DNA of 64,000 nucleotides, taken from a virus. The notes beneath the pieces were generated by a model. It was not told where the DNA came from and ran no database searches. It saw only the letters and a list, made by a program, of their open reading frames with translations. Shown here piece after piece: positions 43,642-44,589 of the stretch. Location of the stretch: positions 1 to 64,000 of the IMG/VR virus record IMGVR_UViG_3300032050_000024. The stretch is one strand, 5' to 3'. A program made the translations under genes and the position numbers. Positions within the stretch are counted from its first letter, which is position 1; every line of letters begins with the position of its first letter.

Positions 43642-43692
43642 TTACATGTTCGGATCACCTGGGGTATCAATACCGGATGCATCGTATTTTGT
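43642..43692. repeat. 51-bp direct repeat, copy 1 (encodes the shared C-terminal tag)
   Basis: 44/51 identical to 44098-44148; all 7 differences are synonymous third-position changes. Confidence 0.9.
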
Positions 43693-44082
43693 TTGATTTA
43701 ATTTAACTAAATTTACGTTAATTGTTTGTTTACCTAAGGCCCAATTGGCAACAAGTCTATGATGTCCATCATAAATTGCCATTTCTCCATCTACAAACTG
43801 AACTGCATTAATTGGCGTTGTTGCATTTATATTTGCAATAATTTGCTTTACTTTATTGCTTTGAATGTTTGGTTGAGTTATTCGAATGTCTGAAATATTA
43901 ACAGTTTCTGGGGTTGCTGTTTTTTGATTTGTTTCAAATGCTTGTATCACCTCGTTCCAGGTATGACGACTCATTTTAAATACATCTTTTATATTTTTTG
44001 CGTCATCAAATAATTTACCTGCAGGTAGTTTATCAATTCGAGTATGATTTGTTTCATTTAATAAATTACGTAATCGTATCAT
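43642..44082 (-). CDS. ParB/Srx-like domain protein with MIRLRNLLNE leader and C-terminal TKYDASGIDTPGDPNM tag
   Basis: I..TQ, IYDGHHRL motif; ATATTTAT at 44087-44094. Confidence 0.7.
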   Translation of the reverse strand: MIRLRNLLNETNHTRIDKLPAGKLFDDAKNIKDVFKMSRHTWNEVIQAFETNQKTATPETVNISDIRITQPNIQSNKVKQIIANINATTPINAVQFVDGEMAIYDGHHRLVANWALGKQTINVNLVKLNQTKYDASGIDTPGDPNM

Positions 44083-44097
44083 ATTAATAAATATTCT

Positions 44098-44148
44098 TTA
44101 CATGTTCGGATCACCGGGCGTGTCGATGCCCGATGCATCATATTTTGT
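44098..44148. repeat. 51-bp direct repeat, copy 2
   Basis: See 43642-43692. Confidence 0.9.
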
Positions 44149-44589
44149 ATTAATTACTCTAATTAGTTTACTATTAACTAAACATTTTTTTATGTTAACA
44201 ACAAAAACTGAAAGATTATTTGGATCTTCAGAATATCCTTCTACGGTATTATGATAAATAAATTCATTGTAATTGCCGTATTTTATAAAATCCTCAGTTG
44301 TATGACCAGCACCTTCGTCTACATCCATCATGATTTTTGGATATGGATTTACTAATCTGATATTAATTTTATATTCATAAAAAACTGAGTAATGATTCCA
44401 TAACGAATCAATCCTAGTATCTACTTGCTCACTAGTACCTAAATGTATTGGTTGATTAGATGTTACAAAATCTATTTTATTTGAAGATCCATGATATGTA
44501 GTTAACATCAAGCCAGGTTTAATTCCTTGACTGTGAATAGTGTCCGGCCAAAATGAATTTTCCATTAATAAATTTTTTAATCGTATCAT
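44098..44589 (-). CDS. Putative ADP-ribosyltransferase-fold protein with MIRLKNLLME leader and the same C-terminal tag
   Basis: YHGS, IHLGT, IY.N.VEG....SV.V pattern reminiscent of phage polyvalent-protein ART domains. Confidence 0.5.
   Translation of the reverse strand: MIRLKNLLMENSFWPDTIHSQGIKPGLMLTTYHGSSNKIDFVTSNQPIHLGTSEQVDTRIDSLWNHYSVFYEYKINIRLVNPYPKIMMDVDEGAGHTTEDFIKYGNYNEFIYHNTVEGYSEDPNNLSVFVVNIKKCLVNSKLIRVINTKYDASGIDTPGDPNM

Follow-up and report, generated by a model that had tools for sequence, protein, structure and literature searches.

Two adjacent genes of a virus carry the same short N-terminal leader and the same 16-residue C-terminal tail on unrelated middles, and we found this tail on 101 unique proteins with about 16 to 18 unrelated middles. 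The genes, open reading frames (ORFs) A and B, lie within positions 1 to 64,000 of an IMG/VR virus record (IMGVR_UViG_3300032050_000024, here G000) that is 130,639 bases long and estimated to be 78% complete; this 64,000-base stretch is called the window. We propose that proteins with the tail (tagged proteins) are effectors that the phage packages in its head and injects into its host, with the leader serving as a capsid targeting sequence (CTS) and the tail as a docking peptide. We assign this reading as a whole a probability of about 0.5. The principle of a common leader on swappable cargo is already known from the CTS of phage T4 (PMC3012670, PMC9026906), and it is the C-terminal tail alone that is new. 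The features of the two genes are as follows.

43642-44082, minus strand: ORF A, 146 amino acids (aa), with leader, ParB/Srx-like middle containing DGHHR, and C-terminal tail.
44053-44082, minus strand: leader of A, MIRLRNLLNE, from the ORF translation.
43642-43692, minus strand: tail of A, TKYDASGIDTPGDPNM plus stop codon, from the ORF translation.
44087-44094, minus strand: ATATTTAT box of A, 4 nucleotides (nt) before the ATG; promoter-like and common to structural genes.
44098-44589, minus strand: ORF B, 163 aa, with leader, middle of predicted ADP-ribosyltransferase (ART) fold, and C-terminal tail.
44560-44589, minus strand: leader of B, MIRLKNLLME (10 codons), a putative CTS with an L-x-E protease site, on T4 precedent (PMC9026906, PMC8442874).
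44098-44148, minus strand: tail of B, TKYDASGIDTPGDPNM plus stop codon; a low-confidence tail in the structural model.
44594-44601, minus strand: ATATATAT box of B, 4 nt before the ATG; a one-base variant of ATATTTAT.

The two ORFs are arranged head to tail with an intergenic spacer of 15 nt, in a window with a G+C content of 32% whose minus strand carries 138 of 145 ORF calls. As the initial annotation had described, both ORFs start MIRL(R/K)NLLxE and finish TKYDASGIDTPGDPNM, both have an ATAT(T/A)TAT box in front of the ATG, and the tag regions, each 51 nt long with 16 codons and the stop, show exactly 7 differences, every one of them synonymous and at a third codon position. Its description of the middles as unrelated also stands: BLASTP of A versus B aligns the last 29 residues only (E = 4e-11) and yields no credible match between the middles. 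The two tails in the window are the only ones in the whole virus record.

The tail was searched for elsewhere with degenerate DNA patterns that fixed either GIDTPG and the final Met or a K[YF]D...G.D.PG.P.M frame. The viral loci recovered numbered 19 at first and 43 once the pattern was relaxed, and the metagenomes contributed another 72 loci. Including the window, there are 133 tagged ORF instances, which represent 101 unique proteins; the 133 include a chance hit (L063) and a locus with no readable ORF (L071), both of which were omitted from the flanking-gene count given below. Middles of at least 60 aa, stripped of both ends, fall into 16 BLAST clusters. Because the largest cluster is linked by fusion proteins that bridge three otherwise separate middles, we place the number of distinct middles at about 16 to 18. 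With 101 unique proteins elsewhere ending in it, the common tail cannot be put down to chance. When Ile and Thr were left free in a third pattern, 36 loci were returned, all of them already known and with GIDTPG tails only. The tail is absent from 50,697 GenBank phage records and from 185,579 prokaryote species (one genome each), and a literature search of limited scope found no paper on a shared C-terminal tail of CTS-bearing proteins.

The same results bear on one alternative, namely that A and B are diverged paralogs from a simple tandem duplication that is present here only. The genes are indeed adjacent and on the same strand. However, their middles do not align, they differ in fold and family, and a profile comparison of another tagged cargo (the ART-PolyVal-like protein of L018) with the B family aligns at the tail alone. 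The same ends are also found on all the unrelated middles counted above. We give this explanation a negligible chance, and a duplication restricted to A and B, which the initial annotation had listed among the results that would refute its proposal, is ruled out by the nonaligning middles, the 101 tagged proteins, and the profile comparison.

The tail is conserved as a peptide and not as DNA, and is apparently under strong purifying selection. Across the 16 codons of 84 unique tail-coding sequences, the proportion of synonymous differences (pS) is 0.62 and that of nonsynonymous differences (pN) is 0.15. The pN/pS ratio is 0.24 over the 16 codons and 0.085 over the last ten, at pS values of 0.62 to 0.65; because the sequences are related to one another, the values serve as a description and do not amount to a formal test. 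The GIDTPG and final Met columns are constant by construction of the search patterns. Among the free columns, Pro at -2 is kept in 82 of the 84 sequences, Asp or Asn at -3 in 83, Asp at -12 in 73, Tyr or Phe at -13 in 77, and Lys or Arg at -14 in 72. A DNA-level element was rejected on the basis of this synonymous variation. Hairpin matches in the tag of B were also discarded, as they are on the plus strand and depend on the codon choices of B. Likewise, a role for the tail as a second protease site was rejected because 83 of the 84 unique sequences have no Glu (the remaining one has Glu second-to-last).

Nearly all of the tagged proteins reside in one hot spot of a single clade of uncultured, T4-like water phages. 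In the window, this site is defined by three genes.

44809-46665, minus strand: ribonucleotide reductase gene, the upstream border of the hot spot; named by reading the translation only.
44591-44809, minus strand: DUF5522 gene, 72 aa (Pfam PF17653, E = 6.8e-18), a conserved landmark within the hot spot.
42914-43579, minus strand: folE (GTP cyclohydrolase I), the downstream border; blastn match to such genes of Cellulophaga and Flavobacterium phages.

Of the 43 viral loci, 37 have homologs of the window's reductase, DUF5522, or folE genes on the same stretch, as do 47 of the 70 metagenome loci, and the median distance from the end of the tail to the nearest of the three is 64 nt. The other loci are on short contigs or belong to a sister lineage that has a second site. 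From locus to locus, the flanking genes are closely related (median identity of 90% for the reductase and 89% for the helicase), and a cassette can lie either before or after DUF5522. The tag-bearing genomes share 77 to 87% identity with the window phage in the capsid protein and 76 to 91% in the portal, whereas the nearest isolates by capsid, Flavobacterium phage vB_FspM_immuto and Microcystis phage Mel-JY01, share about 55%.

A DUF5522 relative is encoded on 526 viral contigs; we took a census of the slot in the best 80 of them, and 67 of these 80 include both flanks. No cassette is present at 40 of these 67 loci, one or two tagged cassettes at 25, and leader-only cassettes at 2. The slot is hypervariable: among close relatives, it may be empty or may hold one, two, leader-only, or fused cassettes. 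The fusions arise by deletions in which one cassette's tail, from the point after KYDAS, has become linked to the body of the following cassette, resulting in two-cargo proteins (L009, L034, L040, L046, L060, and L077). In L026 and L033, a deletion has collapsed the cassette to 58 aa, with the cargo N-terminus joined directly to the tail. Because the content of the slot varies while the flanking genes stay close relatives, cargo is very probably exchanged by recombination in the constant ends. Such an exchange had been suggested in the initial annotation, and the many unrelated middles at one hot spot lend it indirect support. Each of five tag-bearing genomes has one or two tails, and none of five empty-slot relatives has a tail anywhere; two of these five are 100% complete genomes. 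The tail must be dispensable, since complete relatives lack it.

Two further observations concern the slot. Between the reductase and DUF5522, many relatives carry ORFs of 245 to 253 aa that start MIIYKTTNL..GKIYIGK and resemble GIY-YIG homing endonucleases by eye (L003, L009, L029, L032, L035, L130, L134, L153, L160, L176, L189, and L192). In addition, a 139-aa ORF in the slot of L049 has a Gly-to-Cys change in its tail (GIDTPCNPTM) and may be a decaying copy.

At the other end of the proteins, the leader is probably a CTS that directs its cargo to the core of the prohead, where the prohead protease would cleave the leader off at [LI]-x-E, behind Glu10. Among the gene products of the phage are a gp23-type capsid protein (PF07068, E = 1.9e-74), a gp21-type prohead protease (PF03420 Peptidase_S77, E = 6.9e-34), and a gp20-type portal (PF07230, E = 4.4e-64), which also have PHROG capsid, head protease, and portal matches, respectively. 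A gp21-type protease is also found in the tag-bearing relatives G001 and G005. Together with a 10-residue leader ending in [LI]-x-E, these genes give indirect support to the earlier proposal that the leader loads the protein into the head. Among the unique leader-coding sequences, 53 in number, Leu or Ile occupies positions 7 and 8 without exception (53/53 each), and positions 6 and 9 vary freely. Overall, positions 2, 4, 7, 8, and 10 are held, with 2 and 4 being partly fixed by our filter and 7 and 8 being unfiltered. Residues 8 to 10 are L-N-E in A and L-M-E in B, and among 69 unique tagged proteins with a readable start, Glu or Asp occupies position 10 in 63 and position 9 in 6.

These features resemble those of T4. 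According to PMC9026906, the T4 CTS comprises the first 10 residues of the internal proteins, where positions 4 and 7 serve targeting and positions 8 and 10 serve processing, and Asp at position 10 stops cutting but not targeting; the sequence itself is printed in PMC8442874. The presence of the CTS on IPI, IPII, and IPIII is credited to Mullaney and Black 1996 in PMC9026906, PMC3012670, and PMC8442874, and T4 internal proteins are described in PMC3012670 as a diverse set with the CTS as the sole common part. Both systems thus have an N-terminal propeptide of about 10 residues ending in [LI]-x-E and a gp21-type protease gene, and in T4, too, a leader is all that unrelated, fast-changing cargo proteins have in common. 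The T4 cargo is thought to counter host defenses after injection. Unlike T4, the phage described here adds an invariant 16-residue C-terminal tail that is predicted to be uncleavable, its proposed cargo is enzyme-like (ART fold, ParB/Srx, GNAT) whereas that of T4 consists of small basic proteins, and its cassettes occupy one reductase-folE slot.

The leader is not confined to tagged genes. Untagged genes of the window carry it as well, among them the following.

5850-6599, minus strand: leader-only MISLKNLIVE on a 249-aa protein; no tail; ATATTTAT 5 nt upstream.
8208-9038, minus strand: leader-only MIRLKQLLFE on a lysozyme of virion type with Phage_lysozyme2 and LysM domains; no tail; a candidate packaged cell-wall hydrolase.
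28949-30811, minus strand: leader-only MIKLKKIILE on a 620-aa protein; no tail; ATATTTAT 7 nt upstream.

The ATATTTAT box occurs 49 times on the minus (coding) strand of G000 versus 12 times on the plus strand, and 30 of these 61 occurrences lie 0 to 35 nt upstream of a same-strand ORF start, including those of the portal and other structural genes. From this distribution, we infer that the box may be a late promoter. In four genes with the leader (5850-6599, 9035-9367, 28949-30811, and A, with boxes at 6605-6612, 9372-9379, 30819-30826, and 44087-44094), only 4 to 7 nt separate the box from the ATG. If the box is a promoter, these four genes would produce leaderless or nearly leaderless mRNAs.

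The dispersed genes help to evaluate the possibility that neither end is an address, and that both are instead constant arms of an expression-and-recombination cassette whose proteins remain cytoplasmic in the infected cell. Several observations are in line with this idea. The 5' arm is conserved as DNA too, with ATATTTATTAAT and ATGATACGATTA in most cassettes, and the leader pS of 0.48 is below the tail pS of 0.62. Furthermore, the cassettes are located among early-type genes with a sigma-70-like box after A, and the GIY-YIG-like ORFs share the slot in relatives. We nonetheless consider it quite unlikely. On the dispersed untagged genes, the leader is found with quite different upstream DNA, and its conserved positions are those that matter in T4. 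Untagged homologs of B elsewhere have other leaders ending in [LIVF]-x-E, some of them near the T4 CTS (e.g., MIKTYIEFINE), and the tail is free at synonymous sites while its peptide is fixed. A locus-relative search for two of these untagged homologs, P0010 and P0005, found no relative. Alignment A2 omits P0022 (repetitive) and P0013 (a fragment).

If the leader delivers proteins to the head, the nature of the cargo becomes relevant. For ORF A, the best match is PHROG 2859 (E = 4.9e-8; function unknown), followed by several ParB-like PHROGs (E = 4.5e-4 to 2.7e-2), whereas Pfam ParBc_2 gives E = 0.044 and 14.4 bits, below the cut-off of 23.6. A profile of the A family has weak matches in the PDB to sulfiredoxin (E = 0.4) and SbnI (E = 0.7), and one relative of A has a precomputed PF02195 assignment. 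The residues D105, G106, H107, H108, and R109 (DGHHR) are invariant in the five aligned A-family members (5/5) and align, in the weak profile match, with a G-C-H-R stretch of sulfiredoxin. The ParB/Srx-like call of the initial annotation is consistent with the PHROG, profile, and PF02195 matches, and we retain it for A as a name that rests on sub-threshold evidence.

ORF B belongs to no Pfam or PHROG family, and Pfam likewise has none for 21 members of its family. Sixteen homologs at E ≤1e-3 were found among 1.84 billion representatives, and a PDB sequence search with the B profile gave chance-level rows only. An Atlas lead connects B to ART-PolyVal (0.92, 162 shared features); the Pfam ART-PolyVal model (PF18760) has no match to B at E values up to 10 in its own genome, nor to the 21 family members. 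AlphaFold2 modeled B with a predicted local distance difference test (pLDDT) score of 86.2 and a predicted template modeling score (pTM) of 0.80 when 21 aligned sequences were used, versus a pLDDT of 39.2 with 7 sequences. When this model was compared with 48,161 chains by VIA-align, ParT ranked first (Z = 8.0, root-mean-square deviation of 3.6, 118 aligned), and the next rows were NatT (7.9), MbcT (7.8), RES toxin (7.7), and diphtheria toxin (6.8). PARPs and ADP-ribosylating toxins account for most of the 50 listed rows, judging by row titles. Foldseek placed the same kinds of proteins on top (best E = 6.3e-3, none reaching 1e-3), and BFVD added weak ART-PolyVal-like rows. According to the tool note, a Z of about 8 is often reached by unmatched models and is not decisive alone, and we assign the fold because the list of structural neighbors is uniform. 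The model thus agrees with the earlier call, and B is predicted to have an ART fold. In the 21 sequences of its family, H49, G51, and Q55 never vary, and near-invariance extends to H33 (Arg in two sequences), R59, Y107, Y112, N114, and E117. The catalytic residues expected of an ART are His or Arg in the first strand, Ser or Thr following the second, and a later Glu. The model shows the leader as a low-confidence helix and the tail without secondary structure (pLDDT of 54 and 45 in the last two blocks).

Among all tagged cargos, the ParB/Srx-like middle is the commonest. The B-family middle is recognized by homolog search, AlphaFold2 model, and VIA-align. A GNAT acetyltransferase middle (L028, E = 3.5e-7) is above the cut-off, and the ART-PolyVal-like middle of L018 (E = 2.5e-6, 28.8 bits) is just under the cut-off of 31.2. 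A kinase-type middle has Atlas leads to phage kinase families (scores of 0.94 to 0.96) and is a lead only. Except for GNAT, these cargo names reflect sub-threshold or structural evidence, and the other tagged middles have no informative match. None of the longer tagged proteins scored, which is weak evidence. Between a 181-aa leader-only protein of G000 and the tagged kinase-like cargo, we detected no kinship.

Enzymes of these kinds have precedents among proteins that are injected or predicted to be injected. T4 Alt is an ART that is carried in the head and injected, and both of its termini are special; according to PMC5694885, gp21 cuts after Glu, removing from Alt an N-terminal propeptide at ITE-6 and a C-terminal piece at LTE-619. 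In contrast to the Alt C-terminal 63 residues, which are removed by gp21, the tail described here lacks Glu and should stay. B is also a protein of 163 aa without detectable sequence similarity to a named ART family. Polyvalent proteins (PMC5512222) offer a second parallel, as they are predicted to be packaged and then injected, and both systems draw on one repertoire of effector domains (ART, ParB-like, and kinase, here a lead, with GNAT nearby); Iyer et al. 2017 predict injection of such effector domain kinds (PMC5512222). However, polyvalent proteins have 2 to 15 domains per polypeptide, often with a MuF or portal domain (PMC5512222), whereas A and B are single-domain proteins that each have their own leader and tail, with two-cargo fusions in relatives arising via deletions.

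We therefore envision a cassette that consists of a promoter-like ATAT(T/A)TAT box abutting the ATG, the 10-residue leader, a variable enzyme, and the 16-residue tail. The leader would bring the protein to the prohead core, where the prohead protease would cut after Glu10. The trimmed enzyme would stay in the head, enter the cell with the DNA, and act on host targets in the manner of T4 Alt and the internal proteins. As the tail has no Glu, it should remain on the mature protein, and on balance we favor the view that it is a shared short docking peptide. The initial annotation likewise supposed that the tag docks the protein to a common partner, for which the comparisons described below yielded no candidate.

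Short C-terminal peptides that bind capsids are familiar from encapsulin cargo-loading peptides and from the scaffold or protease tails of phages and herpesviruses. The tail could act similarly, as a short C-terminal peptide on unrelated cargo that binds the inside of an HK97-fold shell. Unlike those systems, the proteins described here also carry an N-terminal signal. To our knowledge, there is no sequence likeness between the tail and the C-terminal peptides of encapsulin cargo or scaffolds. A complex prediction for the capsid protein with the last 47 residues of the ParB-type family gave a score of 0.00 and a mark of 0.32, which speaks neither for nor against binding.

Comparisons of whole genomes narrow the choice of partner. 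The G000 proteins that are present in tag-bearing G001 and G002 and missing from the tag-free complete genomes G009 and G010 are A, B, the lysozyme, and a leader-family protein, all of them matched via their short ends. A 103-aa ORF was the sole receptor candidate on the G001 side, and was dismissed because it is present in tag-free G011 and was not found in tag-bearing G003. As these comparisons of three tag-bearing and two tag-free complete genomes revealed no gene that accompanies the tail, it is unlikely that the phage has a dedicated receptor, and the partner should belong either to the core proteins of the phage or to the conserved proteins of the host. We tentatively prefer a core, always-present phage component in the head that would position or retain a small subset of the cargo, for example near the exit; this slight lean reflects the restriction of the tail to one clade. 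A conserved host protein is the less probable candidate.

If the partner is a host protein, the leader would function as described above, and the tail would act only after injection to dock effectors onto one conserved host hub protein. We view this as a minority possibility. Consistent with it, the tail is acidic, lies without confident structure at the very C-terminus, and would be kept on the mature protein because it has no Glu. It is also common to several modifying enzymes (ART, GNAT, ParB-like, and the kinase lead), and no phage gene co-occurs with it. Against a hub-docking peptide, the tail is limited to one phage clade, is absent from the phage records and prokaryote genomes searched, mimics no cellular tail, and is unused by other phages of similar hosts. 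The leader is also present on every readable tagged protein, and leader-only effectors of the same cargo families exist.

A third role for the tail would be as a control handle in the producing cell, such as a degradation or sequestration signal or a site for a common inhibitor, that keeps unpackaged toxic enzymes harmless. In structure, B comes closest to toxins from toxin-antitoxin systems (ParT, NatT, MbcT, and RES), a single handle for many toxic cargos would be economical, and a C-terminal position without confident structure is compatible with such use. Yet no co-occurring inhibitor gene was found when tag-bearing and tag-free genomes were compared, and leader-only cargos of the same families manage without a tail. 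We regard this role as very unlikely.

Returning to packaged effectors with a docking tail, several points count against this proposal. Packaging and cleavage are both deduced from sequence, and [LI]-x-E is a low-information motif. The T4 CTS alone suffices for packaging, and thus the model needs no second signal. Complete relatives exist without the tail, one of which still has seven leaders of this type, and a comparison of three genomes with the tag and two without it revealed no gene that tracks the tail. The cassettes are located among nucleotide-metabolism and replication genes, away from the head genes. Pfam assigns B no ART family, and its VIA-align Z of 8.0 is within the range common for unmatched models. 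Finally, more diverged tails would have escaped the searches, whose patterns held either GIDTPG or the K[YF]D frame constant. A more specific version of the proposal is a two-signal code, in which the cleavable leader would load any cargo and the uncleaved tail would give one or two chosen effectors of each phage a special location or turn in the order of exit, such as a position at the portal from which they would be the first to leave. We consider this version rather doubtful.

Injected head proteins are a phage's first strike on host defenses, and how they are loaded and chosen is little known outside T4 and a few jumbo phages. The cassettes described here form a natural series of one leader, one tail, and about 16 to 18 middles, with leader-only and empty-slot relatives, in which the role of each end is directly testable. 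If the tail turns out to provide a second signal for sorting or docking, capsid cargo loading would gain a new element, and the packaging of designed proteins in T4-type heads a compact handle. Under a two-signal code, proteins delivered by virions would have in the tail a sorting signal that is both new and portable, and effectors would have in the slot a natural plug-in site. In addition, the cargo list (ART fold, ParB/Srx, GNAT, the kinase lead, and many unknowns) provides a catalog of candidate host-takeover or anti-defense enzymes.

Several other features were noted during this analysis. One is a promoter match close to the cassettes.

43597-43624, minus strand: sigma-70-like promoter match TTGAAA-16-TATATT (10/12), between cassette A and folE; position-based only.

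Matches of this kind show no excess in the region (8 versus 9.4 in shuffles). With the sigma-70-like box after A, the cassettes seem to be placed between two transcription units of another promoter type.

Among the head genes, the portal (G000 86213-88051; L023:2213-4051) is 612 aa in length, and the Portal_T4 model covers residues 77-465. The roughly 147 residues that extend beyond the model at the C-terminus are rich in Lys and look disordered. The head-gene block also encodes a 167-aa protein (G000 83011-83514; L022:19011-19514) with a weak Dockerin_1 match (E = 0.046), whose Asp/Asn-rich loop, DINNDGKTDKTD, suggests a calcium-binding loop. Adjoining the leader-bearing genes of the window is a minus-strand gene (3890-5173) whose product, 427 aa long, is hydrophobic at the N-terminus and includes a CUB domain (E = 3.2e-8).

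Lastly, six plus-strand genes beyond the window (G000 119023-126541; L024/L025) have a second common leader on differing bodies, MKNILAENM(I/L)RFG(T/P)KNL(S/T)(E/K/V), which holds I-L-A-E. A hybrid start, MIKLKNILAENMRRF(G/K), is found in G001 and G002, and the two leader types look related.

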